A stretch of DNA of 64,000 nt, from the NCBI GenBank assembly GCA_964500725.1, contig CAZCNP010000001.1, positions 321,520 to 385,519 on the forward strand. Reading direction: 5' to 3'. Below the pieces are notes generated by a model. It saw only the letters and a program-made list of their open reading frames with translations, had not been told where the DNA came from and did no database searches. Below are positions 645 to 45,011 of this stretch, piece by piece. Made by a program: the position numbers and the translations under genes. Each line of letters begins with the position of its first letter. The stretch's first letter is position 1. This stretch comes from an uncultured Gammaproteobacteria bacterium. Its GTDB lineage: Bacteria > Patescibacteriota > Microgenomatia > Daviesbacterales > UBA10151.

Positions 645-1538
645 ATGTTTTCTACTTTTAAACAAAGGTTAATTTTAGGAATTTATATTTTTATCCTACT
701 TTCTATTCCAGCAGGAGCTTTTCTGGTTTCCCAATACAGAACTACTGTCAAAAGCAGCGCTTTTGAACAAAAAGGTGTTAAACCTACCTTACAAATTCCC
801 CCAAAACCAGCAACCCCTTCAGCCAGACAATTACTAAATGCCTCACAACAAGCTGCTAACTCTACAGCTGGATCAACTACTGCTTCTTCTTCCGAGCCTT
901 CTCCTACCCCTGAAGGCTCATCCCCTACTATTGCCACCTCTTATGGCCCAACCTTATCCCTTAAAGTAGCCTTGGAAGGCAGAGCTGAAAATAATCAAAC
1001 TACTAAATTGTTTGTAGGTATTGCAGAAGGAGCTCTAACAGCTAACCCTAAATTTGTCTTAAGTTTTTCTGTGGATCTGCCTGCTTCAGGGCAATATTCT
1101 AATTTATCCTTGGCAGGGCTCACTGTAGGATCAAATTACACTGCTTTGGTAAAAGGAGCTGCTCAAATTGCCGGCTCTGCTGCCTTTACTATGGCTCCTA
1201 CAATTACAAACCTAAATGATGGCGTAGTGATTAATTTAACTTCAGGAGATTTAAATGAAGATAATGTCATAAACTCTACAGACTATACTATTGCCCAAAA
1301 AGCCATTGGCTCTACCTCAAAATCTGCAAATTGGAATGAGACTGCTGATATTAATAGAGATGGTATGGTAAATACTTTTGATTTAGGAATAATTTCTAAA
1401 AATATTGGCAAGACTGGGGATTCAGGAGCCTGGACTTCACCTATACCTAAAACCTCAACTCCTTCTGCAGGACTGGCTGCTCCTCCTATGGGTTCCCCTG
1501 ATGGCAGTGATGGCTACTGGCTCTGGCTACCCAAATAA
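645..1538 (+). CDS. Membrane-anchored/secreted protein with a C-terminal type-I dockerin-like domain
   Basis: N-terminal hydrophobic anchor (LILGIYIFILLSIPAGAFLV) and a P/S/T-rich linker. Two tandem Ca-binding dockerin repeats: DLNEDNVINSTDYTIAQKAIG and DINRDGMVNTFDLGIISKNIG (DxNxDGxVNxxD pattern). Confidence 0.55.
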   Translation: MFSTFKQRLILGIYIFILLSIPAGAFLVSQYRTTVKSSAFEQKGVKPTLQIPPKPATPSARQLLNASQQAANSTAGSTTASSSEPSPTPEGSSPTIATSYGPTLSLKVALEGRAENNQTTKLFVGIAEGALTANPKFVLSFSVDLPASGQYSNLSLAGLTVGSNYTALVKGAAQIAGSAAFTMAPTITNLNDGVVINLTSGDLNEDNVINSTDYTIAQKAIGSTSKSANWNETADINRDGMVNTFDLGIISKNIGKTGDSGAWTSPIPKTSTPSAGLAAPPMGSPDGSDGYWLWLPK

Positions 1539-2438: not shown

Positions 2439-3911
2439 ATGGCTTCTCTGTCCCGGACCAGTTGGTTGTTTGTATTTCTGGTTTTTGCCCTTCCTTTAGT
2501 TTTTTTCCCTTATACTTACCTTGCTTTTGAAATGCCAAAAGTCTTTTTATTGTATCTTTTTACAGTTTCCACCCCTTTTCTTTTACTCAAGTCAGGCTAC
2601 AGATTAGGCAATTTTAGTAAAGTTTACTTACTGTATTTGGTGTTCTTTGCTTGGATTATCTTGACCGCTGCCTTGGGCTTATCTTTTGGGCAAAGTTTTT
2701 TAGGCAGCTATTTTAGGTGGCAGGGAATAATAACCTGGATATGTTACTTTGTGTTATTTTTTATATCTGCCAAGTTATTTGAAAACCCTCATTTTAAAAA
2801 ATACACCTGTTACGCTATTTTAATAGCTAGCACTGTTACCGCACTGTTGGCTATCACTCAATTTGCTCTTTATTGGTTTGATGGGAATACCACCCAACTA
2901 CTATATAACCGCAGAGTAATATCCACCTTTGGCCAGCCTAACTTTTTAGGAGCCTACTTGGTCATGTCGCTTCCATTTACCTGGCTTTTACTCAAACAGG
3001 CCAACCTAAAGCAAAAGGGGTTAATAGGCTTGGGGCTAATTATTATAATTTTAGGCATCCTTTCTACTACCTCAAGAAGTGCTTATTTAGGCTTGATCTT
3101 TCTAGCTTTAATTTGGGGAATTTTTCATTACCGTCTGCTTCTTGCAGGCATTATTGCCTCAATAATACTTCTTACTATCTTAGCAAATCTTTTTCCTTTA
3201 CTAGTGTTCAATGAGTGGTATAGATTTAAGATTGATACTACCTCAAAATGGACAGCTGAAAACAGGCTCCTTATAGCCCAGAGATCAGTTCAATTAGTTC
3301 TACAAAAACCCCTTACTGGGTATGGTTTGGAGAATTTCTCCTTAGCCTTCCCTGCTGTTGTTAACAGTCAAGATTTAGGCTTGAAAGATATTGTGGTTGA
3401 TTCTTCTCATAACCTATTTTTGGACTTAGCAGTCCAATTAGGCCTGGTAGGATTAGGGCTATTTCTTGCTTCTGTCTCCTCTGCTTTAATAACTGGCTTA
3501 AAACGCCTCAAATCGGCAGATATAGAGTCTCAGCAACTTATCAAAGCAGCTATATGTGTAGTCATCACCTTCTTGAGCATGCACCAATTTTCTGTTGTTT
3601 CAGTTGTGCCAATGGTACTTTTTTGGGTCTCCTTAGGAATCATCACCGGACCAGCTTTAGCTTATCATGCAATCTCCAAATTAAGTAGAAATATTATAAG
3701 CCTTGCTGGGATCAGTTCCATAATAATTATATCTCTCCTTATTATTCAAACAATTAGGGCAGATATTTTATTTCGGGAAGCCAGTGCTTATGAAGTATCT
3801 GATATACATAGATCTATTAAGCTAGATAATGATGCAATTAAAATAGCCCCATGGATCTATTTTTATCAAGTTAGAAGAGATTTCCTCCTCAAGCAACTCG
3901 GGTATAATTAG
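2439..3911 (+). CDS. O-antigen ligase (Wzy_C)-like polytopic membrane protein, possible O-oligosaccharyltransferase/polymerase
   Basis: At least 10 predicted TM helices; central motif STTSRSAYLGLIFLALIW...H with a large periplasmic loop, as in the WaaL/PglL/Wzy_C family. Confidence 0.5.
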   Translation: MASLSRTSWLFVFLVFALPLVFFPYTYLAFEMPKVFLLYLFTVSTPFLLLKSGYRLGNFSKVYLLYLVFFAWIILTAALGLSFGQSFLGSYFRWQGIITWICYFVLFFISAKLFENPHFKKYTCYAILIASTVTALLAITQFALYWFDGNTTQLLYNRRVISTFGQPNFLGAYLVMSLPFTWLLLKQANLKQKGLIGLGLIIIILGILSTTSRSAYLGLIFLALIWGIFHYRLLLAGIIASIILLTILANLFPLLVFNEWYRFKIDTTSKWTAENRLLIAQRSVQLVLQKPLTGYGLENFSLAFPAVVNSQDLGLKDIVVDSSHNLFLDLAVQLGLVGLGLFLASVSSALITGLKRLKSADIESQQLIKAAICVVITFLSMHQFSVVSVVPMVLFWVSLGIITGPALAYHAISKLSRNIISLAGISSIIIISLLIIQTIRADILFREASAYEVSDIHRSIKLDNDAIKIAPWIYFYQVRRDFLLKQLGYN

Positions 3912-4827: not shown

Positions 4828-7800
4828 ATGGTTAGCCCTAAAAAAACCTTTTTGGCTGTTGTAAGTCTTTTATTGGTTGTTATTTCTGTATTTCCTCAAC
4901 CTCTTTTTGCCTCCCAAAAACAATATTTTGACTATGGCCCTTACTATTCTACCTCTCAAGTCTTAGGTTTTTCCTTCTCCTCTTTAGAAAACCTGCCTGC
5001 TTTAAAAGTTCCTGATAATTTAATACCAGCAAAAGCCAGCGGTGTTTTGCCAGACAGTCCTTTTTATTTTTTTGAGAAAGTTGCTGAAAATACCCAACTA
5101 ACATTTACCTTTGATCCAGTTAAAAAAGAACAATTAAGAGTAAGTTTTGCTGCCGAAAGATTAACTGAAGCTAAAACTCTGATGGACCAAGGTAAAACAG
5201 GTCCAGCTTCCCAAGCTTTAAATGATTACAGCAGGACTTTAGATACACTTGCTCAAAACCTGCCAGCAATTGCCCAAAGAAATGATCCAGCCTCTCAGCA
5301 GTTACTGACTCAGGTAGAAAAAGTTACTGCTGATCAAGCGGTGGCAGCTACTGCCTTAAGTTTGACTTCCTCCCCTGCTCAAGCTGAAAACTGGACTGAG
5401 GCCCAAAATACTGCCAGGCAGGTCTTGGATAAAATTACTGAAAGCAAAGGCGAGAGCGCTATTCCACAAGATTTATCAACAAGCCTTCAGCAACTCAAAG
5501 AGCAGGGTTTAATCTCAGAAGAAGAAAGCGGTAAAATATACAGCTTAAAAAACCGCGGCGAGGTCCGGGAAGAATTAAACAAGTTAGCTTCCTCAGGAGG
5601 CATTCCTCCTTCAGAACTCCTTAAGCTAGATACATCTGTAGCTAAATACTACCCAGATGTTCAAAAACAGGAAATTGCTAATTGGCAGATAGTAGAACTT
5701 AGAAGTTATCAATCTTTACCACAACCTACTGAAGAAATTATAGAGCAGCTGGAAAAATGGCAAAATCAATCAAATATCCCCCCATCAAATGATATCAAAC
5801 CATATCTTTGGTATACTAGAGCTTCTGATTTAGCTCAAAAAGTAGACTTATCAAACTTTACCTCTGAGCAGCAAACTGAAGCAGTCAAGTCTTACCCTGC
5901 TATTGCTGCCAACCCTACCTATTCACCTCCTCCCAGCCCTACACCCACTCCTTCTCCTTCACCAGCAGCTGATAATACATCTCCAGTGCCTTCAGCCACA
6001 CCTTTATCCTCAGCTCCCCCAGCATCTCCGCCTCCTGTCCCGGTTGAACCATATTTGGAAGAAACCGTTGGAGCTTTGCCTGGCCAACCTACCTATATAT
6101 TAAAGCAGCTAGGTGAAGGTTTCAGTCTAGCTTTCACTTTTGATCCTGCTGAAAAAGCCAGGCTGCAAATGCAAGTGGCTGAACGCCGTCTAGCTGAAGC
6201 TGAAGCACTCTCCAGCGATCCTAAAAAAGCTAGTCTTTATGAGGCTACCCTGAAAAATTATCAACAGGCAGTAAATACTGCCTCAACTTTTGTTAAAGAA
6301 TTGAAGGATCCCAAAATTGCCAAACAGGCAGCAGAAAGGCTGGAATCCCAGTCTGCCAGGCATGAGGTAGTTTTTGAAAAAGGACTCCTGCCTGCCCCGG
6401 CTGAAAATCCCAATCTAATTTCAGATGTTATTAATGCTGCTGAAGATGCCATGGACAGAAGCGCTGATGTTTTGGATCGTCCTGCCTTGCCGCCGCAACT
6501 TGCATCCAGATTAGGCGATCTGAAAGCTCAGGGGTTGATTTTAGAAGAAGAAGCTGCAGATTTAGTCAAATCTGCTACTAGAGAAGAAGCGCGCAGTAAA
6601 ATCAGAAAACTGTTAGAAGCCCAAACTTTTCCTCTGGCTGATGCTAAAAAGCTGGATGAGGCCCAAAGTTTTGTCAACTCAACTGACTACAATCAACTAG
6701 TAGAGGTTAGAAAAGTTGAGGAACTGCAAAACTTAAGATCAGTACAAACAGATCTGGCCCAAACTCCCACACTCAAATCTCAAGCTACCAACTTAGCCCA
6801 AAAAGAAGCAGTTTTAACTAGCTCTTTTGATCCTGCCCTTATCAATAAAGAAGATCTGGCTGGCAAAGAGAACTTAGTTAAAACTTATGAAAAACTCTCA
6901 TCAATCCCCCGTCCGATTAACGGCGGACAGTTTGGGTCCGAGGCTACTCCAGGGGCCAAACCCGCAGCTACCCCCTTACCCCAAGATGCAGTTTTAACAG
7001 CTTGCCCTGAAGGTGCTGTTTTCAAGCAATATGAAGGCTGTGTGTGGGCTGACAGCGGTAAAAAGCTCAACGACTATGATCAGTACAAATGCGAAGGCCC
7101 CAGGCAGTATTATTCTTTTGCTGTAAGAAAATGTGTGGCTTATGATTCCTCTCAAGGCTATCAACAAGATGCCCAGCCTGTTTGTCCTGTAGGTTATCAA
7201 TGGAGTTGGCAAAATCAAAGCTGTCAAACTTCAACTGGAGGTATTTTACCTTGGCCCAGCCCTTCAGCCCAACCAGAACCTAAAGACGAAAAAGAAATAG
7301 AAGAAAGATCAAAAAGCTGTCCTGAAGGCTCTTCCTACAAACCTCCCCAGGGCTGTGTTTGGGATGATGATGGCAAATCAGTTTATGATTCTGAGCAGTA
7401 TCGCTGCAACGGACGTGGTCAATATTACTCTTTTGAACAAGGAAAATGTGTAGCTGCTCCTAAAGAGGGAGAGCCATATCCCAAAGATACCTCCCCTGCT
7501 TGTAAAGAACCTGACACTTATTGGAATTGGTCCCAAGGCAAATGTGTTAAAACTGTTGAGGCAGTCGCCGCTACTCCGCAAGCTATTAATATTGATGAAG
7601 TTAGGCCAAATTTTGCCACCCCTGGTAATCCTTTCTATTTCCTAAAACAAGCTGCTGAAAGAGTGCAAGAATTTACCGCCTTTACTCCTGAGGCTAGAGA
7701 ACAAGTCCGCGCATCTCAAGCCAAAGAAAGACTGGCTGAGGCTATTGATGCTTCAAAAAGAGAAGATGAAACAGGGATTAAAAATGCTTTATCCGCCTAT

Positions 7801-10344
7801 ACCTCTACCATGCAGAATCTGGTAAGCGATCTGTCTAAAGCTCAACTTTCTGATACTGCCAAAAATCAAATCAGCAAAAATTTAGCCCAAAGCTCTGTTG
7901 AACAAAACCTCCTGTTGCAAAAACTCCAAGCTTTGGCGGGAGCCGAACAAGATACTCCTATCAGCGCTGCAGTTTCAGCCACTATCTTAGGTGTAGATAA
8001 AGCAGCAGATATTGGCGGTGAGCCTCCTATTCCTGCTGATGTAAAAGAAAAAATTGAAGCCTTGCCAGAGAAAATGATCTCTGATGGTGACAAGAAAAAA
8101 CTTTTGGAGATGAAATCCCGGGTAGAAGCCAGACTCACTTTAGGAGGCTTGATAGCAAATGGCGCTTTAACACAAACTGATACTAATTTTCTAAATGAAG
8201 ATTTTGACAAGGTAGACCAAAATACCAAGATTAAGGTAGAAGAACTCAAAAAACTAGAAGAGATTGCAACTGCAACTGAAAGCAAGGATAAACTTGATGA
8301 AAAAATCAAAAAAAATGAAGATGTGGCCCAAAAATTACAAGAATTTGAAAAAACTTTTGAAGTTGGCCAGGAAGTTCCTGTGGAGATTAGACCTTATGTT
8401 AGACTCACCAGAATCAATGAGGTAACCCAGACTATCAGGCCTGACCTAGTCAGACTTAATGAGTTCCAAAACCGCAAAGATATACAGCTGGCTGTGGCTA
8501 CTTTACAAGAAGAGTTTAAACCAACAGCTGAAAACTTTGGAAAGATTGAAGAATTCCGAAGAAGAAACCCCTCCTCGCCTCTTCCTCCAGATCTAGCCAG
8601 GGTCGAGGCTCTATCTTACAATTTAGGAGTAAGGAGGGAAGCAGGACCATGTTTTCTACCCACTCCACCTTTTGCACCAAACACTCCTTGTCCAGCAGCT
8701 GGAGCAGCTATCCCTGTTACTTCATACTATAGCTTCGTCACGCTCTATGCACCAGAGGATCCAGGTTCTCTCAACCCTTCCATACCCTCCACTGACAAAG
8801 ATGGCAAACCTTTAGTTTACGGACAAGGGCCAAAACCCGCAAGTCCTGGAGTTTGTCCATCAGACTCTCATTGGATGTATGACAGCGGAGGCTGGTGTAT
8901 GTCCAACAGCGGCAACTATAGTTCATCTTACTCTTACACACCAACTGGCACTGGCGCAGGTTATACTCCTTACAGCTCTTATTACACTGCCCCAGGAGCG
9001 CCTCCAGCAACCTACGGCTATCCTGCAGCAGGAGGTAATTACAACTACTCTTCCTACAGCCCGCCAAGTTATTACGGCACTGCTCCCACTTATTACACCA
9101 CTAACCCTCCTGCTGGTACTGTGCCTGGTTCAGGACCAAAACCTACCTCACCTGGTCAATGTCCATCAGGGTACCATTGGATGAGTGATAGTGGTGGCTG
9201 GTGTATGGCTGATGGACCAACCTATGTACCAAGTGGTTCTTACCAAAGCTCTTATCCTGCAGGCGCTACCACCAGTGAAACTCCACCCTCAGGAGGCTAT
9301 AATTGTGGCAGCCAGCCATATGATCCTGTCACCAAAAGATGTAAAGACGGAGCTTGTCCAGGAGGATTTAATTGGGATGGTAGCAAATGTGTAGCAAGTA
9401 GTCCTTATTATTCCCCTAATTTAACTCAGTCAAGCTGCGGTCCTGGATATTACTGGGATGGTAGAGGTTGTATTCCCACCTATTCCGGAGGAAACAGCAA
9501 CGGAGGAAGTTACTCTAGCAGCGGAGGCGGGTATTCTCCCGGCTCATACCAGTATGGCTGTACTCCAGGATATTATTGGGATGGTAGTAAATGTGTGGCA
9601 GGCAGCAATGAAGGCTCAGGCTGGTCAGATACTGCTGCCCGATCCCAATCCTGGTGTCAACCTCCCTCAAACGGCTGTGGCTCTAACTCTTATTGGGATT
9701 ATGGCAGCTGTTATTGCCGAAGCTCAAGCACTTATTCTGGAGGTAGCGGTCCCTCACCCAGCAATCAATGTCAAGGTCTAAGCTGCGGTGGAGGTGCATG
9801 GTTAGATTACTCAACCTGTAGTTGTAAGTATTCAGGTGGTTCTGGAACTAGTTCTACAGGATCTACCATCACTTGTTATCCTCCTTCTGCAGGTTGTCCA
9901 GGCGGCTGGTATGACTATAGCAGTTGCAGCTGTAAAACCAGCTCCTATAGCACAGGTTCATCAGGCGGGACTTCTGGTGGATCATCTTCAGGCTCTTGCC
10001 CCTCAGGCTCTCATTGGATGAGTGAGAATGGCGGTTACTGTATGTCTGATGCTGAAAGAGATGCTGCTTCCACCGGCGGTTCTTCCGGCGGATCATCCTC
10101 TTCCGGCTCCTGTCCTTCAGGCTACCATTGGATGGATAACAGCTGGTGTATGCAAGATGGCAGCGGTAGCACCTCTACACCCGCACCTACTAGTACCAAC
10201 TCTACACCTACTCCAACCTCTCAACCTGAACAGCAACAGCAAACACCCCAACCTACTTCCCAACCTGAGCAACAGCAACAATCCACCCCCCAACCTGAGC
10301 AACAGCAGTCTACTCCTCAACCTGCATCCTCTCCTTCATCATAA
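4828..10344 (+). CDS. Large secreted protein (1,838 aa): signal peptide, three DUF5667-like helical domains, novel Cys-rich repeat modules, Y/S/G-rich low-complexity region, C-terminal Q/P/T repeats
   Basis: Signal peptide LAVVSLLLVVISVFPQPLFA. Three copies of the FYF[FL]K...F.F.P...LAE helical module (DUF5667-like) at aa ~75, ~430, ~940. Four copies of CPSG[YS]HWM..GGWCM, three of C.PGYYWDG..C, paired CPEG...GCVW...Y.C...QYYSF..KCVA modules. YS-rich stretch SSYSYTPTGTGAGYTPYSSYYTAPG.... Terminal TPQPTSQPEQQQQ x3. Confidence 0.7.
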   Translation: MVSPKKTFLAVVSLLLVVISVFPQPLFASQKQYFDYGPYYSTSQVLGFSFSSLENLPALKVPDNLIPAKASGVLPDSPFYFFEKVAENTQLTFTFDPVKKEQLRVSFAAERLTEAKTLMDQGKTGPASQALNDYSRTLDTLAQNLPAIAQRNDPASQQLLTQVEKVTADQAVAATALSLTSSPAQAENWTEAQNTARQVLDKITESKGESAIPQDLSTSLQQLKEQGLISEEESGKIYSLKNRGEVREELNKLASSGGIPPSELLKLDTSVAKYYPDVQKQEIANWQIVELRSYQSLPQPTEEIIEQLEKWQNQSNIPPSNDIKPYLWYTRASDLAQKVDLSNFTSEQQTEAVKSYPAIAANPTYSPPPSPTPTPSPSPAADNTSPVPSATPLSSAPPASPPPVPVEPYLEETVGALPGQPTYILKQLGEGFSLAFTFDPAEKARLQMQVAERRLAEAEALSSDPKKASLYEATLKNYQQAVNTASTFVKELKDPKIAKQAAERLESQSARHEVVFEKGLLPAPAENPNLISDVINAAEDAMDRSADVLDRPALPPQLASRLGDLKAQGLILEEEAADLVKSATREEARSKIRKLLEAQTFPLADAKKLDEAQSFVNSTDYNQLVEVRKVEELQNLRSVQTDLAQTPTLKSQATNLAQKEAVLTSSFDPALINKEDLAGKENLVKTYEKLSSIPRPINGGQFGSEATPGAKPAATPLPQDAVLTACPEGAVFKQYEGCVWADSGKKLNDYDQYKCEGPRQYYSFAVRKCVAYDSSQGYQQDAQPVCPVGYQWSWQNQSCQTSTGGILPWPSPSAQPEPKDEKEIEERSKSCPEGSSYKPPQGCVWDDDGKSVYDSEQYRCNGRGQYYSFEQGKCVAAPKEGEPYPKDTSPACKEPDTYWNWSQGKCVKTVEAVAATPQAINIDEVRPNFATPGNPFYFLKQAAERVQEFTAFTPEAREQVRASQAKERLAEAIDASKREDETGIKNALSAYTSTMQNLVSDLSKAQLSDTAKNQISKNLAQSSVEQNLLLQKLQALAGAEQDTPISAAVSATILGVDKAADIGGEPPIPADVKEKIEALPEKMISDGDKKKLLEMKSRVEARLTLGGLIANGALTQTDTNFLNEDFDKVDQNTKIKVEELKKLEEIATATESKDKLDEKIKKNEDVAQKLQEFEKTFEVGQEVPVEIRPYVRLTRINEVTQTIRPDLVRLNEFQNRKDIQLAVATLQEEFKPTAENFGKIEEFRRRNPSSPLPPDLARVEALSYNLGVRREAGPCFLPTPPFAPNTPCPAAGAAIPVTSYYSFVTLYAPEDPGSLNPSIPSTDKDGKPLVYGQGPKPASPGVCPSDSHWMYDSGGWCMSNSGNYSSSYSYTPTGTGAGYTPYSSYYTAPGAPPATYGYPAAGGNYNYSSYSPPSYYGTAPTYYTTNPPAGTVPGSGPKPTSPGQCPSGYHWMSDSGGWCMADGPTYVPSGSYQSSYPAGATTSETPPSGGYNCGSQPYDPVTKRCKDGACPGGFNWDGSKCVASSPYYSPNLTQSSCGPGYYWDGRGCIPTYSGGNSNGGSYSSSGGGYSPGSYQYGCTPGYYWDGSKCVAGSNEGSGWSDTAARSQSWCQPPSNGCGSNSYWDYGSCYCRSSSTYSGGSGPSPSNQCQGLSCGGGAWLDYSTCSCKYSGGSGTSSTGSTITCYPPSAGCPGGWYDYSSCSCKTSSYSTGSSGGTSGGSSSGSCPSGSHWMSENGGYCMSDAERDAASTGGSSGGSSSSGSCPSGYHWMDNSWCMQDGSGSTSTPAPTSTNSTPTPTSQPEQQQQTPQPTSQPEQQQQSTPQPEQQQSTPQPASSPSS

Positions 10345-10363: not shown

Positions 10364-12313
10364 GTGAATAGATTATCAACAGTTATAATCTTTATTGAAG
10401 ATAAACGTAAAATCCTCATCTCGCTATTTTTAGTTGTTGGTCTTGTAAGCGCCACCATAGACGGAATTATTCTTGTGCAACGTCCTGTAACCTACCAGTC
10501 AAAAGCCAGCAGCAAATTCCAAAAAAAACTTTCTGTAGTAGAACCTGCCCAACCTTCCTCTGTAGTCAAATTTGCCTCTCCCAAAGGTTTGTATAAACTT
10601 TCTTATGACCCAAAACAATGGACTTTAATACAAGATAAAGAAAGAGTGACTTTTAACCTAAGAAAAGAATATGGCTATGCCAGGTTAGATATTCTTGAGG
10701 GCGAAAGCCAAAAAGATCTGGATAGTTTGAAAGAAGAAATAATCAAACTATCCCCTGCCAAACCTATTAGCGTAGAGGCTACTACATTCAAAGGCAAGAG
10801 CGCATATTTATTAACTTACCAAGAAACAACTCTAGGGACAGAAACGTATTATTATCAACAGATTGTCAAAGATAATAATAAATTTCTCATTTTAGAAAAG
10901 AGGTTCCCTCGTTTAAGCTATCAAACTCCCTATTTGGATAACTTACTGGAGAACATTTCCTTAAACAGTCAAACCCCACCACAAGTTAAAGGCATTTCTG
11001 AAAATAGGACTAAGCTAACAACAGTTGAGCTGGTAGATTTAGTCCGCCCTGCTGTTGTCAATATTGTCCATACCTATTGTGTTGATATTGTTAATCTTTC
11101 ACCGGAGCTTTCCAAACTCACCAAAGACAAATATAACTTTTGCAGTTTATCAAAAGGATCAGGATTTTTAGTAGATGAAAAAGGGGTAGTTGCTACCAAT
11201 GGCCATGTTGCCAAAACCTATCCAGAAGAAGGTTTGGTAACCAATATTCTCTCTGGTGGCAATAAAATTTTAGCTATAGATTTAATCAAAGGTGTATATG
11301 CTTCCTCAGGATTTGCTGCCAGTGAAGGCCAAATTGAGGATTTTTATACAAAAGTTAGTCTAAACCCCCAATACCTTGATCATATTTTGGCAGAAATTTT
11401 TAAGCTGCTTGATAAAAAAGCTGTCTCAGTTGCAATCAGCAATGAAAAATATTATGTCAATGTAGGCAACGAACCGATCAAAATAAACTATCAAACTCAA
11501 ACTGTAATACCTTCTTCTACCACCTATAGCGCCAATATGTTGGATTTTGATTATCCTAATAAGTACATAAAATCCCAGCCTGGTTCTGATGTAGCTTTAC
11601 TGCAGATTAAAAATTCATCTAATAGTCTTTTTCCAGCACTGGCACTGGTCAACACTCAAAATCTAAGAGAAGGTTCAGATGTGATAGTTGCGGGCTACCC
11701 TGTTTTGGTTGAAGGAGGAGAAGGACCAGGAGCTACTATCAGTTTTAAAACCTCCACCAAACCTACTGTAACCCGGGGAATTATCAGCGCTATAAAACAA
11801 GATCCTTCAGGCAGACAAGTATTTCAAACAGATGCTTCTATAGATCATGGCAACAGCGGCGGTCCTGCATTCAACTTACAAGGTGAGACAATAGGTATTG
11901 CCACCTTCTTTTTTGAAAGCAAAAGCGGTAATTTTAACTTTTTGCGAGATATTTCAGACCTTAAAACACTAATGTCTAAAAATAATATAAAAGGCGGAGC
12001 TGGAAAGCTGACTGACACTTGGAAAGCAGGCTTAACCCAGTTTAGGCAATCATATTATAAGCAGGCAATTAAATATTTTGAGGAAGTCAAAACTCTATCT
12101 CCTACCCACCCTACTGTTAAAGAATTTATTAAACTTTCTCAGGATGCTATTGAAAGAGGTGAAAGCTTAGAGGGACTAGTAGGCTTTGTGAAAAACGGGC
12201 AAGGAACAAACATCATTCTAGTAGTATTTGGGGCTATTTCAATAGTAAGCTTTTTATCAGCAGGGTTCTTGGCCATCTTGCCTTTTTTTACCAAATATGA
12301 TAAAGTAGCTTAA
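10364..12313 (+). CDS. Trypsin-like serine protease (S1/DegP-like catalytic domain) with N- and C-terminal TM anchors; GTG start
   Basis: Catalytic triad context VATNGHVAK (His), GSDVALLQI (Asp), DHGNSGGPAF (Ser, GxSGGP). TM segments near both termini. Confidence 0.7.
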   Translation: MNRLSTVIIFIEDKRKILISLFLVVGLVSATIDGIILVQRPVTYQSKASSKFQKKLSVVEPAQPSSVVKFASPKGLYKLSYDPKQWTLIQDKERVTFNLRKEYGYARLDILEGESQKDLDSLKEEIIKLSPAKPISVEATTFKGKSAYLLTYQETTLGTETYYYQQIVKDNNKFLILEKRFPRLSYQTPYLDNLLENISLNSQTPPQVKGISENRTKLTTVELVDLVRPAVVNIVHTYCVDIVNLSPELSKLTKDKYNFCSLSKGSGFLVDEKGVVATNGHVAKTYPEEGLVTNILSGGNKILAIDLIKGVYASSGFAASEGQIEDFYTKVSLNPQYLDHILAEIFKLLDKKAVSVAISNEKYYVNVGNEPIKINYQTQTVIPSSTTYSANMLDFDYPNKYIKSQPGSDVALLQIKNSSNSLFPALALVNTQNLREGSDVIVAGYPVLVEGGEGPGATISFKTSTKPTVTRGIISAIKQDPSGRQVFQTDASIDHGNSGGPAFNLQGETIGIATFFFESKSGNFNFLRDISDLKTLMSKNNIKGGAGKLTDTWKAGLTQFRQSYYKQAIKYFEEVKTLSPTHPTVKEFIKLSQDAIERGESLEGLVGFVKNGQGTNIILVVFGAISIVSFLSAGFLAILPFFTKYDKVA

Positions 12314-16416: not shown

Positions 16417-19400
16417 ATGTTAAAAGTTAATTCGTCCAAAAAATCACTTGTTAAAATTGCCCAAGCCTCCAAGTTATTAGGCGTCCACAAAGATACTTTA
16501 AGAAGATGGGAAAAAGCTGGCAAAATTAAAGTAGTCCGAGACCAAAAAGGAGACAGGCTTTATGATGTTTCTAAACTAATTAACTCAGCTCCTGCTTCTC
16601 AAACCTCCAAGGTGCCTACAACTGAGCAGCTGTTAAAGTCAGCTTCCCAACACGCTCAACAATCCACCTTACAACCTCAGCTACCAGCTTTAGATTACTC
16701 TGCTTTGTTAGATCAAACTATATCAAAGGATAACAAGCAAACAGGCAGAAGGTTTTATTTTATGGCTGCAGGCTTCTTCCTGCTCTTAGTGCTGATAGGC
16801 TTAGGTTATATTAGAGTTTTATCTACTCAATCCAAACCACAAATAATTACTTCTTTGGAAAACAAGATACTGGCAGCTATCACCTCTCAACCTTTAGTTA
16901 AGATAAATGCTGATGTCAAAGTAAGAGGGTCATTATCTGTATCAAACGATATCAATGGGCTGGCGATTGCCACTGATTCAGCAGGCTTTACCTTAACTTC
17001 TGAAAATGGCAAATTAACTGTGGTTGGCGATGCCTTGTTAAACCAAGACTTATCTTCCAGCGGCTCCCCTACTTTTTCTTCTCTAAATTTATCCTCAACC
17101 AGCAATCAGCTAGTCTTTCAATCAGGCGGACCAGCAGGCACCTTAACCTGGACTCCAACTGCTGCAAGAACTATTACCCTGCCAGACACCACTACTACTT
17201 TAGTTGGAAAAGATACCACCGATACTTTTACTAACAAATCCATTTCTGGGTCTTCTAACACTTTTACCAATATCCCCAACTCTGCTCTAACAAATAAAAA
17301 AATAACTGTTACAGCTGGAACTAATTTAACCGGCGGAGGAGATGTAGAACTTGGTTCATCAATTACTTTGAGTTTAAAAGAATCCCCTACTTTCTCCGGT
17401 GTAGTCTTACTTTCTGATGGCACAGCTGCTGCCCCAGGCTTAGCTTTCAGCAATGATACTAATACAGGTTTATATAGAATTGGTACAGATAAAATTGCCC
17501 TGATCACAGGAGGATTAGCTACCTCAGGGATTACCATTGATTCTTCTGGCAATTTAGGAATAGCCAATAATTCTCCAGCATATAAATTAGATGTAACAGG
17601 CACTGCCAATATTACCAGCAATACTACTATTGGTGGAACTCTGGGAGTAACAGGTATCTCTACTTTTTCATCAACTATGGGGGTGTCGTCAGGATTATCT
17701 GTAGGTAGTACCTATTCTTCTCTGTCACCACCAACCAGCGGTGCCATTATAGAAGGAAATGTCGGTATCGGAACCAGCGCCCCTGGTTCTTTTGCGTTAA
17801 ATGTAAGCGGCAATACTTACCTTAACGGGAGGCTAGAAACTTCAGGTAATGTTGGTATAGCTAATTCTGCTCCATCTTTTACTTTGGATGTAGTAGGTAC
17901 TGGCAGATTTTCTTCTTTACTTAATGTCTTAGGTAATATAGGTATTGGTACCTCTGGTGCAGCAGGATCAGCCCTGCAGGTTAATGGTGGAGGATTATTT
18001 GGCTGGGGAACAACTTCTACTGCTTTATCTTCTGGAGCTATCTTAGGAGTTAATGGAAATGTAGGAGTTGGGACTACTTCCCCTCTGGCTAACCTGCATG
18101 TTGTTGGACAATGTGTTGTTGGGGAAACAAAACTTAAAAGAAGAAGGAGAAAGAAGGGCAAAAATGGTGAGTGGTCAGATGAATATGAAGATGTAGAGAT
18201 TAAGGATATCAAGGAAGGGGATGAGATACTAACACTTGATGAAAGTACCGGCAGATTTGTACCTGCTAAAGTTAACGCCCTCAAAGATATGGGGATCAAA
18301 GAAATCTTTGAGTTGACCACTGCTACCGGAAAAACCATCAGGACCACCGGCAACCATCCCTACCTGGCACTTGGCGTAGAACACCTAGCCCTCACTAGTC
18401 ATGATTCGGCATCAGGTGTTACCGGTGCTTCCTTGCTCAACTCTACCATTTTATCTCTCACAAGAGGGAACAAAGACCACCGGATCGCCGTCTTTATCGA
18501 TGCGGCAAACCTTGAAAAATCCGTTGAGAAAATAGGCTTCAAAGTCCACTATAAAAACCTTAAACGCCTAATTGCTTCTTTAGGTTCTCTTGACTATATT
18601 GGTTATTTTACAGTAGCTACTTCTTCAGAACAGAATGTGACTCTTCGCCAGTCTCTGCTGCGCTTTGGTTATAACGTGGTTACCAAACCTCTAAAACTTA
18701 TTAAAACCGCCAAAGGCCTGAAACCCAAGGCTGATGTTGATGTAGAGATTACCACCGAAGTAATGGAACGCAAAGATGACTTTGATCTGATGATTCTCTT
18801 TTCAGGAGACAGCGATTTTTACTATCCAATTAAGCTCTTACAAGAAAAGTATGGAAAGAAAGTAATAGTTATCTCTACCAGATACAGTGTCTCCAGGGAA
18901 CTACTCAAAGTTGCTGACCGTTACATTGATATTGCCAAGCTTAAAGGGGAAATTGCCAGAGGGCAAAAAGAAAGCCCGTCTTTTGCAACGGGCGACTCAT
19001 CTTTCGACGAGAGCAATCTTACGACTGCACTTCAAACTATATCAGATATCCTGCCTTTTGTCAAGAATTTGGGCAAATGGACTAAGGTGTCAGGGCTAAA
19101 GACCGGCCAGATGATAGCTGCAGTAGGGAAAGACAACCAACCTCAGTTTGAAAAAATTGCCTCTATTAAGAAGGTTAAACGCGAGCAGGTCTTTGATATA
19201 GAAGTAGAAGGCACCCATAACTTTGTAGGCAATGATATAGTAGCTCATAATACTTTTATTACAGGTAATGTTGGGATTGGGGCTGCTTTTACCACCTCAG
19301 GTATAGTTACCCCCACTAATGGTTTAGCTGTCCAGGGTAATGTAGGTATAGGAACTTCTACCACCAATGCTGCCTTAACAGTAATAGGTGGGATAACAAC

Positions 19401-22400
19401 TACTGGCAATGTTGGTATTTCAAACTCTGCCCCATCATTTACTTTGGATGTAGTAGGCACTGGCAGATTTTCTTCTGATCTAACTGTTTCTGGAACTACC
19501 TTCTCTGCCTCATCAGCTGCTGGATCATTTGATTCCTTAACAGTAGGAGGAGGTTATGGATCAACAGGAGTATCAATCTCCAATGCTGGAGTAATCCAGG
19601 CTAATGGAGCTTTAACTGCTGATGGACTGATTACTGGTTCAACAGGTTTAACTATTACTGGAGGTGTAGTTTCTTTGAATGCTTCCTCAAATAATGCTGT
19701 CAATATAAACACAGGATCATCTACAGGTGCTTTAACATTAGGAGGAGGATCTGGAACTGTGGAAGTGGCTTCCACCAGCTGGGATATTTCTACTTTAGGA
19801 GCTATCTCTGGTGTCACTGGTATTACTACCTCAGGAGGATATACCCAATCTGGTACTTCCGAGAACCTCTTTACTGGTAATGTGGGTATAGGAGTATCTG
19901 CTACAGGAGCTAAACTTTCTTTAAATGGCGGAGCATATATCTGGCCAATTACAACTAATATTGCTGCTCCTAATAACGGATTAGCTGTTTATGGTAGAGT
20001 GGGCATTGGTACTACCTCCCCCGCAACCAATCTCCACTTGATTGATACTTCTGGCAACACTGAGATAGCCAGGTTTACCTCCACGACCAACTCTAAGGAC
20101 TCCTATGTTCAGTTCAATACTACTTCTTCCACTTCTTCTATGGGATTGCAACTTTCTAGCACTGCTGCTAACTCAGTAGGTATGAGAATTGATGGCTCAG
20201 GAAACTTATCTTTCCATACAGGTGCAGCCAGCAGCTCAGTTATGGCTAATAATAATAAAAAGATGACTATTGATACCAATGGGAATGTGGGTATAGGCAG
20301 CAGTGCCAGCAATGGTATTAGCGCAATTCAACTTTTCCAGGTTAATGGAACCTCCTCCTCCCCATTTGTAGTTACTTCAGCTGGTAATGTTGGTATAGCT
20401 AATTCTGCCCCATCTTTTACTTTGGATGTAGTAGGTACTGGCAGGTTTTCTTCTTTACTGAATGTTTTAGGAAATGTGGGGATAGGAACATCAGGAGTAG
20501 CAGGATCAGCCCTGCAGGTTAATGGTGGAGGATTATTTGGCTGGGGAACAACTTCTACTGCTTTATCTTCTGGAGCTATCTTAGGAGTTAATGGAAATGT
20601 AGGAGTTGGGACTACTTCCCCTCTGGCTAACCTGCATGTTGTTGGACAATGTGTTGTTGGGGAAACAAAACTGAAAAGAAGAAGGAGGAAAAAAGGCAAA
20701 AATGGCAAGTGGATTGATGAATGGGAAGAGGTGGAAATCAAGGATATTAAAGAAGGCGATGAGATACTTTCCTTAAACGAGAGTACTGGTGAGTTTATTC
20801 CCAGAAAAGTTAAGGGGCTTTTGGGTATGGGAATGCAGGAGGTGTATGAAATCTTAACCGAAGAAGGTAAAACCATCCAAACCACCAAAAACCATCCTTA
20901 CCTGGTAGACCTCTCTGAAACAGCAGGTACAGCGCTTCATTTTATTCAAAAAGCCACTTTTGAATATAGCGAGAGATTAGGAAAAGAGTTTTATATTGAT
21001 CATCTTGCAGGCAAGAAAATAAAATCAAAAGCATTAAATGACACTATCAACTTTACTCATACAGGCTGGAACCACTTTACAGAAAAAAGCAGATCAATCA
21101 ATGAATTGATTACCAGATTTTTTGCTCTTCCCTATGCTATTACAGTTCTATCTCAAGCCAGCAAAGTAAAAATTCATGAGGAAAGAAAGAAACCAGATAT
21201 GGTAGTGGAATACTGGATTTTTGAAGAAATTATCGAGTATGCGTTAATCCGGGTAGTAATTTCTGCTGTGAATCATGGCCCTAAGTTTTTCTTGTCTTGT
21301 TCCTGGCTGGGGACACAGGCAGAAGGAGGAATTTTAGCCAACAAAAAAGAGCTGTCTCTCTCGCAGGCAGTTACTCCTGGTCGACGTCGGGAACTGGTTA
21401 TCCCTCAGCTCTTTACTAAGCTGTTTATACCAAAAAATGTCAAAAATGTCAAGTGGGTTGAGGTTAGAAACTTAACAGTTGGGGCTAGTATCGCCACTAT
21501 TTCAGGTTGGGAAAAGATAGTTTCCATCAAAAATATGGGTAGAAAATCTACTTTTGATATAGAGGTAGCAGGGACTCATAATTTTCTAGGCAATAATATA
21601 GTTGCCCATAATACTTTCATTACAGGTAATGTTGGTATAGGAGCTGCTTTTACCACCTCAGGTATAGTTACCCCTGCTGATGGTTTAGCAGTCCAGGGCA
21701 ATGTAGGTATAGGGACAACTACTACCAATGCTGCTTTAACAGTGATAGGAGGAATAACCAGTACTGGTAATGTGGGTATTGCTAACTCTGCTCCATCATA
21801 TACTTTGGATGTAATAGGTACTGGCAGATTCTCTTCTACTCTGCTAGCTAATACCTTCTCCTCCTCAGAGGTAACCATCACTGGTGGAACCATCAATAAC
21901 ACCAGTATTGGAGCAACTGTAACCTCAACTGGCGCTTTTACTACTCTTTCTGCCTCTGGAGCTTTGGCTGCCAATGGTGGGATTACCTTTGATAATGCTA
22001 CTGATACATTAGGAGCTTTTACTGCTGCTGGAACTATCAATATGAATGGCAATATTATTACCAATATAGGGGCAACAGATACCAGCTTTGCCACCACTGG
22101 AGCCTTAGCCATTACCTTAGATGGAGCTGATGCCAGTGGCGCTCTCTCTGTTTCCAATGCCTCTCAAACCTCAGATATCTTTGTGGCCAAAGATAACACT
22201 ACTGCTGTGTTTACCATTAAAGATGGAGGCAATGTTGGGATAGGCTTTACCTCTCCTTCAGCTTTGCTTCATCTCAGACAAACAGGATCAGGTAATGCTT
22301 TCTATGTAGAAGATCAGGCAGATGATACTTCTTCTCCTTTTGTGATCAATGCTGATGGTAATGTTGGTATAGCTAACTCTGCTCCATCATATACCTTGGA

Positions 22401-25400
22401 TGTAGTAGGAACTGGAAGAATATCTTCTGATCTGGTAGTAAATGGCACTACTTTCTCTGCCTCATCAGCTGCTGGATCATTTGATTCCTTAACAGTAGGA
22501 GGAGGTTATGGATCAACAGGAGTATCAATCTCCAATGCTGGAGTAATCCAGGCTAATGGAGCTTTAACTGCTGATGGACTGATTACTGGTTCAACAGGTT
22601 TAACTATTACTGGAGGTGTAGTTTCTTTGAATGCTTCCTCAAATAATGCTGTCAATATAAACACAGGATCATCTACAGGTGCTTTAACATTAGGAGGAGG
22701 ATCTGGAACTGTGGAAGTGGCTTCCACCAGCTGGGATATTTCTACTTTAGGAGCTATCTCTGGTGTCACTGGTATTACTACCTCAGGAGGATATACCCAA
22801 TCTGGTACTTCCGAGAACCTCTTTACTGGTAATGTGGGTATAGGAGTATCTGCTACAGGAGCTAAACTAGCCATTAATGGTGGAGCATATATCTGGCCTA
22901 CTACCACAGCTATCTCTGCTCCCAATGATGGGCTGGCTGTATATGGTAATGTTGGTATAGGAACTACTACACCTTTAGCTAACTTACATGTTGTAGGACA
23001 ATGTGTAACTGGAGATACCAGACTGAGAAGAAGGAAGAAAAAGAAGAATGGTGAGTGGTCAGATGAATATGAAGATATAGAGATTAAAGATATCCAAGCA
23101 GGAGACCAGATACTGTCCTTAAATGAAAAGACAGGGCAATTTGAACCTCACACTGTTCTCGCCCTAAAAGATATGGGAATCCACCAAACTTTTGAGTTGA
23201 TTACTGCCTCCAGGAAATCAATCAGAACAACAGCTAATCATCCATACCTTATTAAACAACAAAAAACCCGCCTTTCAGCGAGTTCTTTGACTGAGTTTAA
23301 TGCTGATGCACTATACTCGGGTCTGAGTATCAATACTCTACCACAAAATACCAATAATGTCAAGTCTATGACTGCACGAAGTGGAACTAATGTGGACCTG
23401 ACGGGAATTGAACCCGCAAACCCAGATTTCTCAGACCCGAGCGTACACCAGTACCAGGCCCACATAAAATTATTATCTCATAAATGGATTAAAGTTTCAG
23501 GGCTTAAACCAGGCATGGAAATAGCTACTATTAATGGATGGGAAAAAATAGCAGCTATTAAAAAATTTGCCAGAGAACAGGTTTTTGATATAGAAGTTGA
23601 AGGAACACATAACTTTGTAGGCAATGATATAGTTGCCCATAATACTTTTATTACAGGTAATGTTGGGATTGGGGCTGCTTTTACCACCTCAGGTATAGTT
23701 ACCCCCACTAATGGATTAGCAGTCCAGGGTAATGTTGGTATTGGGACAACTACTACTACTAATGCCTTAACTGTTGCAGGTAATGTTAATACTACTGGTA
23801 ATTTAGGAGTTGGAACATCAGCTACAGGAGGATATAACTTAACAGTACAGGGTACTACCAGTATTACTGGAGCTGCCACTTTTGGATCTACTGGTACCTT
23901 TGCCTCTACCTTAACAGCTTCCAATGGCTTAACTTTAACAACTGGAGCTTTAAATCTAACCTCTACCTCAGGACAGGCTAATCTAGCTCTAACCAATAAC
24001 ACCAACACCTTCACTGTTAATGGATTATTTGGGATAGACACTACCAATAACAGAGTTGGTATTGGAACCACTGCCCCCTCTGCAGCAAGGCTTGAAGTTA
24101 TTGGAGCAGGATCCGTGACAGGACGCACCTTCTGGGTTACTGGATCAAATCTTTCCTCAGGCCTGGCAGTACTGGATAATGGTAACGTGGGTATTGGTAT
24201 TAGTGGACCAACTGCCAGTTTGGATATTGTGGGAACCTCATATACTACTGCCTTAGATCAATCTCAAACAAGTACTAATGGATTTTATAGCTCCAGTATA
24301 CAAGCGCAATCTTTCACCCCTTCTGTTACCGGCCCTTTCATGTATGCTGATATAAAAATCCAATCAGGAGGAGGAGCTCCAGGCAATACCGCTCTTACCC
24401 TCCGCTCAGGAGAAGATGTTTCAGGTACAGTTTTGGCTACTTCAACCAGTGTTGCCAGTTTAGGCAGTGGTTGGTATCGGATTACTTTTGACAATACCCC
24501 TACTTTAACTGCCGGACAGCAATACACCATCCGCTATGATAGAACAAGTACAAACGACTGGGGAATACAAGGTGCTAATCCCTATTCTGGAGGAAGATTC
24601 TATGGCTTAGGAGCTTGGAAAACCGATGATGGTGCCTTTAAAACTTATGTCTATACAACAGATACTACACTGGCAGATGCAGTTAAAATGGCTAATAATT
24701 ACACCTCGGCAAACAGCGGGGCTGTTTTAAACATTACCACAGCTGGAATAGCTGGAAGCTATGCCTTAAGAGTTAACGATGACGGTACATTTACCGATAC
24801 CTCCCCCTTTGTTATTGATACTACTGGTAATGTTGGTATAGCTAACTCTGCTCCATCATATACCTTGGATGTAGTAGGAACTGGAAGAATATCTTCTGAT
24901 CTGGTAGTAAATGGCACTACTTTCTCTGCCTCATCAGCTGCTGGATCATTTGATTCCTTAACAGTAGGAGGAGGTTATGGATCAACAGGAGTATCAATCT
25001 CCAATGCTGGAGTAATCCAGGCTAATGGAGCTTTAACTGCTGATGGACTGATTACTGGTTCAACAGGTTTAACTATTACTGGAGGTGTAGTTTCTTTGAA
25101 TGCTTCCTCAAATAATGCTGTCAATATAAACACAGGATCATCTACAGGTGCTTTAACATTAGGAGGAGGATCTGGAACTGTGGAAGTGGCTTCCACCAGC
25201 TGGGATATTTCTACTTTAGGAGCTATCTCTGGTGTGACTACTTTGAATATGTCAGGCGCCATCACTGCTGCTACTGCCTCCAATACCATCAATGGTTTAA
25301 TTATTAACTCTGGAGCATTATCTGGTGTCACTGGTATTACTACCTCAGGAGGATATACCCAATCTGGTACTTCCGAGAACCTCTTTACTGGTAATGTGGG

Positions 25401-34371: not shown

Positions 34372-34859
34372 ACACAGATCATAAAAAAAGCATGATTCTC
34401 ACGGATAAAAAACAGATCAACACCGATCAGTCTACATCCGCTTTAAATCCGCCTAAATCCTCTTCAGGATTATTATTTGCCGACTTAACTTACAGGATTC
34501 GGGGAGCAATATTCACAGTTTACAACCAGCTAGGGTTTGGTCACAAAGAACAAGTTTACCAAAAAGCTTTAGAAAAAGAATTAATAGAAACTAAACTACC
34601 TTTTAAAAGAGAAGTTAGTTTAAATGTGAAATATAAAGATGAAGTGATAGGAAGCTACAGACCTGATTTTGTTGTAGATGATAAAGTAATTGTTGAGTTA
34701 AAAGCTGTTGAGTTTATGCCTAAATCTTTTGAAACCCAGTTAATCCATTATTTAAAAACTACTGGTTATCAATTAGGACTATTGGTTAACTTTGGTTCTA
34801 CTAAGTTAGTTATCAGAAGATTGCTATGGACAGGTCAGAAGGGAGATTCTCACAAATGA
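34350..34859 (+). CDS. GxxExxY-family protein (PD-(D/E)xK-like small nuclease-fold protein); probable start at M15 (34392)
   Basis: LTYRIRGAIFTVYNQLGFGHKEQVYQKALEKEL...YRPDFVVDDKVIVELKA contains the GxxExxY signature and a D...E.K triad. The ORF-track start overlaps the 3' end of the giant ORF. Confidence 0.6.
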   Translation: MDYKHTMNTDHKKSMILTDKKQINTDQSTSALNPPKSSSGLLFADLTYRIRGAIFTVYNQLGFGHKEQVYQKALEKELIETKLPFKREVSLNVKYKDEVIGSYRPDFVVDDKVIVELKAVEFMPKSFETQLIHYLKTTGYQLGLLVNFGSTKLVIRRLLWTGQKGDSHK

Positions 34860-44196: not shown

Positions 44197-44886
44197 CTAG
44201 CTATTTACCAGCTTTGCTCTCACAACCAACCTGTTTAATAATGTTCCTGGAGGGTCACAGGTTTGCAAAGTTAGAACTGGTTCTTCATACTTGTTAGTCA
44301 AATAGGAAACATCATTTGGATTTACTATCTGTTTATCAAAGACAATATAGTCATACCTTTTATTTTTATAAAAGATAATCACTCTGTCGCCTGGCTCCAG
44401 TTCTCTTAGCAGATAAAATATGGCATTATATCTGACAATATTCCAAGGAGCATCTGTGGAATGAGAAAAAAGGTATAAATTGCCTGGCTGCCCTGGAGGG
44501 GTTGAACCCAAAGCCTCAGCCACCCCTTGTTGGAGGGCAATTTGATATTCTCTTTCGCTGGCAGGGTTAACACCAGCTATTACTTTGGCGTTGGCATTGA
44601 TTTTTTCAATCACTATCCCATACTCTGTTGAAACAGGGATAATGTTGTTTTCTGAAGCAGATACATTACCAAAATCCACTGGCCCCCCACTTGCAGTAGC
44701 TTGCCCTTCTTCAGGAATAACAATATTAGGCACGATTCTTTGGACCCCCAACAATCTATCTTTTCTATAACCAATTTCTGCCTGAACAACTGGCCCCAAC
44801 ATAAAAATAAAGGTAATTAAGCCTGTTAAGAATACTAAATATCCAATAAATCTAACAAAAAGTATTTTTTTAAAACGTTTGGTCAT
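44197..44886 (-). CDS. Sortase-family transpeptidase
   Basis: N-terminal TM; catalytic His (LYLFSHST); TLQTC active-site motif (PVLTLQTCDPPG); conserved Arg (RLVVRAKL). Confidence 0.7.
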   Translation of the reverse strand: MTKRFKKILFVRFIGYLVFLTGLITFIFMLGPVVQAEIGYRKDRLLGVQRIVPNIVIPEEGQATASGGPVDFGNVSASENNIIPVSTEYGIVIEKINANAKVIAGVNPASEREYQIALQQGVAEALGSTPPGQPGNLYLFSHSTDAPWNIVRYNAIFYLLRELEPGDRVIIFYKNKRYDYIVFDKQIVNPNDVSYLTNKYEEPVLTLQTCDPPGTLLNRLVVRAKLVNS

Positions 44887-44893
44887 GCTTAAG

Positions 44894-44966
44894 TATCCCT
44901 GGAGGGAATTGCACCCCCGACCAACCCCTTAGGACGGGGCTGCTCTATCTACTGAGCTACAGGGAC
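44894..44966 (-). tRNA. tRNA-Arg (anticodon CCT)
   Basis: Reverse complement GTCCCTG-TA-GCTC-AGTAGATA-GAGC-A-GCCCC-GTCCTAA-GGGGT-TGGTC-GGGGG-TGCAATT-CCCTC-CAGGGAT-A. Cloverleaf with G1-U72 and an atypical T-loop (G at position 55). Confidence 0.6.
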
Positions 44967-45011
44967 AATCATATGTATAATTTTATCACTAAAGAAGATA
45001 TAATTCGATCA

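Follow-up and report, generated by a model that had tools for sequence, protein, structure and literature searches.

In this study, we have explored a gene whose product, of 1,838 amino acids (aa), combines an export signal, three mutually homologous helical repeats and a long series of conserved cysteine (Cys) pairs predicted to enclose small beta-hairpins, and whose family is restricted to a lineage of the Candidate Phyla Radiation (CPR). The gene is an open reading frame (ORF) with an ATG start at 4828..10344 (+) of a 64,000-nucleotide (nt) stretch, positions 321,520 to 385,519 of contig CAZCNP010000001.1 (assembly GCA_964500725.1), which we call the window and whose numbering we use throughout; the product is 100% identical to the NCBI hypothetical protein HY383_02365 of Candidatus Daviesbacteria, and the window itself is part of a Candidatus Daviesbacteria genome. 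We propose, tentatively and with a little less than even confidence, that a helical stalk presents an array of aromatic, disulfide-closed hairpins that would bind an external surface ligand, possibly a glycan of the N-acetylglucosamine (GlcNAc) type. A large part of bacterial diversity belongs to the CPR, whose members are believed to live attached to other cells and whose surface proteins are almost uncharacterised.

Export signal, helical repeats and predicted hairpins

A preliminary description of this DNA, made from the sequence alone, had called the ORF a secreted protein with three DUF5667-type helical modules, and our analysis bears out both claims. The signal peptide (aa 1-29, 4828..4914, + strand like all features of the gene) consists of KK, a hydrophobic core and FAS, after which cleavage before Q is predicted; it contains the sole hydrophobic 19-mer of the protein, and no further hydrophobic segment exists. 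A signal peptide is likewise present in all homologues, in every case with an equivalent n/h/c region and an AxA-like end, and comparison with them shows an invariant mature N-terminus, YFDYGPYY..VLG, directly after it. The whole-protein Pfam scan found DUF5667 (PF18915) in three stretches (151.9 bits, cutoff 27, E 7e-45) and nothing else significant, and the NCBIfam scan gave nothing significant. Pfam and repeat comparison together delimit three helical super-repeats. The first (5005..5727) comprises DUF5667 (aa 72-168) and then a helical extension, LKxQGLI..EE, and the second and third, each with its own DUF5667, lie at 6070..6747 and 7612..8307. The super-repeats are mutually homologous (29% identity over 235 aa and E 7e-21 for the first against the second, E 2e-9 for the second against the third), and a Pro/Ser/Thr-rich linker, recognised from the translation and its conservation in the family, occupies aa 361-410 (5908..6057). 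At about 230 aa each, they would build an elongated stalk or scaffold. A PDB sequence/profile search with the DUF5667 super-repeat gave no significant match, and a literature search for DUF5667 gave no papers.

The protein has 42 Cys, none upstream of residue 726, and they fall into two regions: a six-hairpin mid module (aa 726-906) positioned between super-repeats 2 and 3, and a Cys/Tyr/Ser/Gly-rich region (aa 1275-1775) after super-repeat 3, which is followed by a T/P/S/Q tail. In the mid module, the paired CPEG motifs noted previously are indeed present twice (CPEG...GCVW...Y[KR]C..QYYSF..KCVA by regular expression, aa 726-771 and 831-876), but each also owns a third hairpin (aa 786-799 and 892-906), so that the unit is three hairpins, repeated twice. 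Unit 1 (7003..7224) has the pairs C726-C738, C755-C769 and C786-C799, and unit 2 (7318..7545) the pairs C831-C843, C860-C874 and C892-C906. AlphaFold2 (AF2), run on a 26-sequence alignment of aa 712-915, predicted a two-stranded beta-hairpin inside each of the six pairs (predicted local distance difference test score, pLDDT, 79; predicted template modelling score, pTM, 0.71).

The C-terminal region opens with a conserved Pro-rich loop, CFLPTPPFAPNTPC (C1275-C1288, 8650..8691), recognised by its conserved Cys columns. The motif CPS[GD]xHWM...[WY]CM occurs four times by regular expression, as had been reported, at aa 1343, 1445, 1724 and 1762: copy 1 lies at 8854..8901, copy 2 at 9160..9207, and copies 3 and 4 (aa 1724-1739 and 1762-1775) within 9997..10152. 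An AF2 model of aa 1320-1480 shows both CPSGxHWM loops of that segment as hairpins, with strands SHWM and WCMS at pLDDT 56-76. For CxPGYYWDGxxC, two strict copies stood up to the search (aa 1537-1548 and 1578-1589, 9436..9594), but the third of the three originally counted exists only in the relaxed form CPGGFNWDGSKC (aa 1510), which is part of a double hairpin, CGSQPYDPVTKRC-KDGA-CPGGFNWDGSKC (9304..9393), with a borderline Pfam match to DUF5874. All three copies of C-x-x-x-[WY]-x-D-Y-[GS]-S-C-[SY]-C were recovered with C...[WY]xDY[GS][ST]C[SY]C (aa 1617, 1653 and 1690); they belong to three 4-Cys units, C-x4-6-C-x10-C-x-C (aa 1610-1630, 1648-1666 and 1683-1702; 9655..9933), whose copy number differs among homologues. 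No motif occurred in any of 20,000 composition-preserving shuffles of the C-terminal third.

When 652 C-x(9-14)-C loops from 42 proteins were pooled, P or G occupied position +1 in 68%, G position +3 in 64% and W, Y or F position +6 in 78%, with an aromatic residue somewhere from +4 to +7 in 98%. Given this common consensus, the repeats that had been taken for several separate families are variants of a single theme, a predicted disulfide-closed aromatic beta-hairpin of the form C-[PG]-x-G-x-x-[WYF]...C. The pairing of the Cys is also visible in their conservation: in a 42-sequence alignment, each reference Cys is either invariant or lost together with its partner, with the single exception of C1738, which looks like a misalignment caused by loop-length variation. 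An even Cys count is found in 40 of the 42 mature proteins, and nearly every invariant column holds C, W, Y, F, G or P. Paired conservation and an even count would place the protein among generic disulfide-bonded extracellular repeat proteins, and its Cys are presumably disulfide-bonded.

We rejected a recent DNA-level duplication of the hairpins. The DNA of the copies is just 63-85% identical, and their duplications are therefore old and upheld at the protein level. The one true tandem repeat is in the low-complexity tail (10165..10341), where the C-terminal repeats of the preliminary description, TPQPTSQPEQQQQ, proved to be a 30-nt DNA repeat at 10249-10324. The tail has neither a transmembrane (TM) segment nor LPXTG. 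Homologue tails are SEPAPAP/T-rich and mostly end in a short P/S/T/A-rich string (...APSP, ...TTSP, ...PSGG). Two homologues, P0026 and P0029, have after the PAPAP tail an extra amphipathic-looking end segment (...STEKNILQF[AI]L[ED][MI]L[FL]G[NK]LR) unlike all others, which could be an alternative anchoring peptide or read-through. The GC content of the gene's 3' half (0.45-0.47 at 8001-10000, against 0.36-0.40 in the flanks) is also raised; we tentatively attribute this to Gly/Ser/Pro/Ala-rich coding content and not to foreign origin.

Distribution of the family and gene neighbourhood

Besides the database copy of the protein itself, we found 41 relatives, mostly full length (1,500-1,940 aa) but including a few truncated fragments, whose best alignments show 42-69% identity. 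Their sources are Daviesbacteria, Levybacteria, Blackburnbacteria and further metagenome-assembled genomes (MAGs) of the Microgenomates group. The peptide patterns HWMYDSGG and CP[SQT]G[FY]HWM, scanned against one genome for each of 185,579 species, matched 59 stretches, of which 43 encode relatives, at 40 loci. Where the records are informatively named, nearly all are Microgenomates-type CPR, including Gottesmanbacteria and Woykebacteria, with single Dehalococcoidia and Planctomycetia titles. An exhaustive profile search with the mid module, over 1.84 billion representative proteins, retrieved nothing but family members and a pair of spurious repeat proteins, and the motifs are therefore a signature of one lineage-specific protein family. 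P0053 and P0054 were rejected as relatives, one matching in a Cys-free repeat region and the other being an unrelated repetitive protein. Along the protein, conservation is fairly even with little gapping up to about aa 1480, past which the number of hairpins differs between species.

Many third-party annotation (TPA) MAG records with a gene of this family are titled 'uncultured Gammaproteobacteria', and one 'Planctomycetia' (L004, L005, L009, L015 and L019, among others). These titles look like mislabels, because in several such records rplJ/rplL and glycosyltransferase genes, 57-79% identical to the window, are arranged much as in Daviesbacteria.

In Daviesbacteria-type genomes the gene order is a dockerin-domain protein, then the gene studied here, then rplJ-rplL; distant homologues have no neighbouring genes in common with it. 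The upstream dockerin protein of the window (645-1538, +) has 297 aa, with a hydrophobic segment at its N-terminus, a linker rich in S/T and a type I dockerin at its C-terminus; its gene is a conserved neighbour (loci L007, L016, L023 and L033); no cohesin was detected in the 1,838-aa protein. The gene is flanked by a Wzy_C (O-antigen ligase-like) membrane protein (2439-3911, +) and, 20 nt downstream, by a trypsin-like protease of 649 aa with a hydrophobic segment at either terminus (10364-12313, +). We considered a functional link to these two, possibly O-glycosylation in the case of Wzy_C, and rejected it because neither is a conserved neighbour in the 43 related loci; both appear specific to this window.

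Further along, in a single ORF of 5,984 aa (16417-34371, +), Pfam identifies an N-terminal MerR-type helix-turn-helix, intein splicing domains within which an NYN domain is nested (aa 588-945), another Hint/PT-HINT region at about aa 1438-1547, a weakly matching LPD3 and, near aa 5350-5400, the endosialidase chaperone domain Peptidase_S74. It resembles a giant protein of polyvalent or mobile-element type that bears an intein. Directly downstream of it, a 1,683-aa protein (34826-39877, +) with seven Laminin_G_3 (concanavalin-like lectin) stretches and DUF2341 is probably secreted and lectin-like. A gene for a PEGA-domain protein (43020-44171) adjoins a sortase gene (44197-44886), followed by divergent tRNA-Arg and tRNA-Pro genes (44893-45085), a serine-recombinase-type gene (45785-47086) and a stand-alone NYN-domain gene (47173-47667); the region 44197-47667 may be an integrated element at the tRNAs.

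Readings of the hairpin array

We favour, as a tentative model, a lineage-specific, conserved and Sec-exported surface or extracellular protein of Microgenomates-type CPR bacteria in which function resides in the hairpins. Small beta-hairpins would lie in two regions, on or after the stalk: the compact two-by-three module and a C-terminal array of species-variable copy number. Each hairpin would be closed by one disulfide (two in the 4-Cys units) and would display an invariant Trp, Tyr or Phe, together making a multivalent, aromatic-rich surface that binds an external ligand, most likely a glycan polymer of another cell or of the cell's own wall, such as GlcNAc-containing chitin or peptidoglycan. 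Copy number that varies between species is as expected for a multivalent binding array. As for the ligand, three weak pointers agree on the chitin-binding hairpin of CBM14, the only weak signal to recur across Pfam and fold searches: Pfam CBM_14 matches 21 of the 26 members of alignment A1 (best E 1.1e-4), BFVD, a library of viral structures, has a 'Chitin-binding type-2' protein as its top fold match (E 7.5e-3, TM 0.10), and EHEP (8in6), a protein of CBM14-like repeats, takes rank 3 in the PDB fold search.

Several observations weigh against this model. Adhesins tend to diversify, and identity of about 40-70% over several candidate phyla is unusual among them; it would fit a housekeeping envelope role equally well. 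The fold searches gave TM-scores of 0.10-0.15 and E-values of 7.5e-3 or more, with none at E <= 0.001. The resemblance to CBM14 is limited to one hairpin: aligned by hhalign to a CBM14 alignment of CHIT1, tachycitin, two chitinase modules and three EHEP repeats, the family profile covered 22 columns at a probability of 1.7%, and a search of the PDB with that profile found no CBM14 chain at E <= 10. The protein shows no LPxTG-like motif and no C-terminal hydrophobic or TM segment, so that no anchor was found and any attachment to the cell is putative, and no disulfide-forming enzyme was seen among the larger ORFs of the window, a scan that beyond 16 kb took in those of about 150 aa or more. The window does contain the sortase gene noted above (44197-44886).

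The main alternative, although we judge it unlikely, is that the protein is a housekeeping envelope or scaffold component of Microgenomates (a wall-spanning fibre, an S-layer-associated or a spacing element) in which the hairpins and the Tyr/Pro segment rigidify or cross-link the structure without recognising any ligand. Conservation over nearly the full length across Daviesbacteria, Levybacteria, Blackburnbacteria, Gottesmanbacteria and Woykebacteria is what such a role would lead one to see, as are an apparently single copy per genome (there is no second copy in the window), the position next to rplJ-rplL in Daviesbacteria-type loci and P/T-rich tails that resemble wall-spanning segments. 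However, Cys are typically scarce in S-layer proteins, the Pfam, NCBIfam and segment scans showed no wall-anchoring domain, and a variable number of terminal hairpins with invariant exposed aromatics fits a binding array better. It is also possible to suppose that the modules are already classified, being extremely divergent true CBM14 homologues or members of DUF5874 (PF19202), a proposal we consider very doubtful. In its favour, CBM_14 reaches 22.1-22.6 bits (cutoff 22.1) in two homologue fragments, and DUF5874 scores 30.1 bits (cutoff 27.1) on aa 1485-1600 alone. The DUF5874 score depends on the boundaries chosen, however, falling to 11.8 bits on aa 1481-1715 and vanishing on aa 1335-1790 and on the whole protein, with 17-26 bits on homologue fragments. 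CBM_14 gives 13-17 bits on the protein itself, below the gathering score over its whole domain of about 53 positions, and its match always covers profile positions of about 25-49 of 53, that is, the final hairpin CPxGLxFxxxxxCxW. The Cys spacing of the three-hairpin unit, as read from the sequence, differs from the six-Cys CBM14 pattern, and neither this pattern nor the distorted beta-sandwich was found. The preliminary view that the repeats cannot be assigned thus needs qualifying: no curated family claims them in a whole-protein scan, but sub-regions match CBM_14 and DUF5874 near their gathering scores. In our view the Cys modules have no secure membership in any curated family and their ties to CBM14 and DUF5874 are borderline; the weak pointers are consistent with a resemblance at the level of the CBM14 C-terminal hairpin and leave homology at the level of the domain unsupported.

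The segment between the first two CPSGxHWM hairpins bears on a further idea. It had been described as a Tyr/Ser/Gly-rich tract of about 150 aa resembling phase-separating domains; between the hairpins it measures instead 86 aa (1359-1444, 8902..9159), with S/G/Y/P-rich composition continuing to about aa 1720. It would be exceedingly unlikely, in our judgement, for this tract to be a prion-like domain that drives self-assembly into a matrix or condensate, with the Cys repeats as several unrelated novel folds. The AF2 model does predict disorder (pLDDT about 33 and no secondary structure over model residues 42-116), Tyr makes up 18%, the tract is Ser- and Gly-rich (16% and 15%) with one charged residue, and S/G/Y-rich composition runs on through the hairpin array. 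Yet where prion- and FUS-like segments are Q/N- or SYGQ-rich, with few Pro, and keep composition while their sequence is free, this tract has 17% Pro, 14% Thr, 7% Q+N and two [GS]Y[GS] triplets in 87 aa, and its mean identity to the reference (0.65-0.66) equals that of the folded parts, with many invariant Y, P and G positions and conserved blocks (GYTPYSPYYxAPGAPPA and PSYYGxAPTxYTTNPPxGTVPGSGP); the Cys repeats, for their part, share one consensus. Under the binding-array model, the Tyr/Pro-rich tract would act as a spacer, flexible yet constrained in sequence, that separates two hairpins; alternatively, it may be a segment for recognition or modification.

Finally, the CPSGxHWM...WCM hairpin (as a peptide, GQCPSGYHWMSDSGGWCMADG) may be read as a metal site. 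The 42 proteins hold 133 H-x-M loops, in which the set of residues is all-or-none: C-M follows Trp in 115 and Tyr in 18, with Met in 133 of 133, and partial sets do not occur. The residue between H and M, which would face the other way, is the sole position to show occasional replacement, being S, L or P in three of the 133. Going by the AF2 strands, H, M, W and M would share one face of the hairpin, with W30 (the middle Trp) and C38 (the disulfide) on the opposite face. PMC9302797, which cites Xue et al. 2008 on this point, gives His36, Met47 and Met49, with Trp44 as a cap, as the site where CusF binds Cu(I); the hairpin has the same four residue types, in strict co-conservation and, by prediction, on a single face. 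Metal binding by the hairpin is nevertheless purely hypothetical. Sequence and fold relationship to CusF, a five-stranded beta-barrel, is absent, the confidence of the model is low to moderate, no copper-handling genes were seen among the window ORFs scanned, just 4 of about 21 loops of the protein are of the H-x-M type, and the same residues could simply pack, or stack on glycans, as a hydrophobic or aromatic patch. We hold it very unlikely that these hairpins are metal sites, for instance CusF-like His/Met/Met + Trp sites for Cu(I), that sequester or sense copper-type metals at the surface; rather improbable, too, is the wider notion that the stand-alone C-[PG]-x-G-x-x-[WYF]...C hairpin is an undescribed minimal tandem binding module whose CPSGxHWM...WCM subclass forms a CusF-like Cu(I)/Ag(I) site. 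To our knowledge, a single disulfide-stapled hairpin with His/Met/Met + Trp would, if a true metal site, be among the smallest such sites, and a conserved protein at the surface of episymbiotic CPR bacteria would display it.

Comparison with known systems

PDB sequence and profile searches with the whole protein and with alignments A1 and A2 found no significant relative. CBM14 is found mainly in eukaryotes and their viruses, while the present family is restricted to CPR bacteria. Both have tandem copies with S/T/P-rich linkers in extracellular proteins, and CBM14 (tachycitin, 1DQC; the chitin-binding domain of CHIT1, 5HBF) shares with our hairpins a disulfide-closed layout, C-P-x-G-x-x-[FWY]-x5-6-C-x-W, with exposed aromatics; the difference is that only the last hairpin of CBM14 is matched, its six-Cys beta-sandwich is not recovered and the loop spacings differ. 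In CHIT1, the hairpin closed by Cys450-Cys463 is followed by an exposed Trp465 that is needed for chitin binding (PMC4844120), and hairpin 1 of our protein has the same C...C-x-W layout with an invariant Trp. The likeness to DUF5874 consists in the double hairpin at aa 1493-1522, which matches profile positions 4-38, just half of the 74-position profile; a literature search for DUF5874/PF19202 gave no papers, and even membership would leave the function unexplained.

EGF-like folds had been raised as a possibility; structure prediction gives a beta-hairpin per modelled Cys pair, and no EGF-like fold match was significant. Foldseek found nothing in the PDB at E <= 0.001, the insignificant top matches being dominated by the EGF repeats of megalin, the Cys-rich region of the insulin receptor and Pfs25, together with EHEP. 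Pfam models of the EGF, furin and TNFR type stayed below threshold, and every EGF-type model far below it (best EGF_Teneurin, 15.3 bits against a cutoff of 24.3, and RANK_CRD_2, 14.1 against 26.8). CxPGYYWDGxxC does fit what we take to be the second half of the PROSITE EGF_2 signature, C-x2-[GP]-[FYW]-x4-8-C; the protein differs from EGF in lacking a C-x-C start and a six-Cys EGF unit.

Within the CPR, three other giant DUF5667 proteins (P0043-P0045) likewise have N-terminal DUF5667 helical modules and then long helical regions. Their distal parts are unrelated to ours, one with PF07705 and two with other Cys-rich segments plus PF08329 and PF16656, which therefore suggests that DUF5667 could be a general stalk bearing interchangeable heads.

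What is new here is an unclassified type of hairpin; the kind of protein, Cys-rich extracellular repeat proteins of the CPR, is known. The family is conserved over several Microgenomates lineages, is probably surface-exposed and offers small, synthesisable modules (hairpins of 14-30 aa and a confidently modelled six-hairpin module of 200 aa). Should the hairpins bind a host envelope polymer, the protein would be a candidate for an attachment factor as well as a marker of the lineage; if they bind none, it would be one more uncharacterised lineage-specific surface protein. A parallel is offered by CPR Peribacteria, whose large extracellular Cys-rich proteins have been proposed to attach to other cells (Anantharaman et al. 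2016, PMC4736985). These proteins, like ours, are giant, Cys-rich and equipped with a signal peptide, but they belong to another phylum and are built of other repeats, with weak similarity to Myxococcus Cys-rich repeats. Moreover, the Peribacteria proteins vary between strains, whereas the family described here is conserved across Microgenomates lineages.

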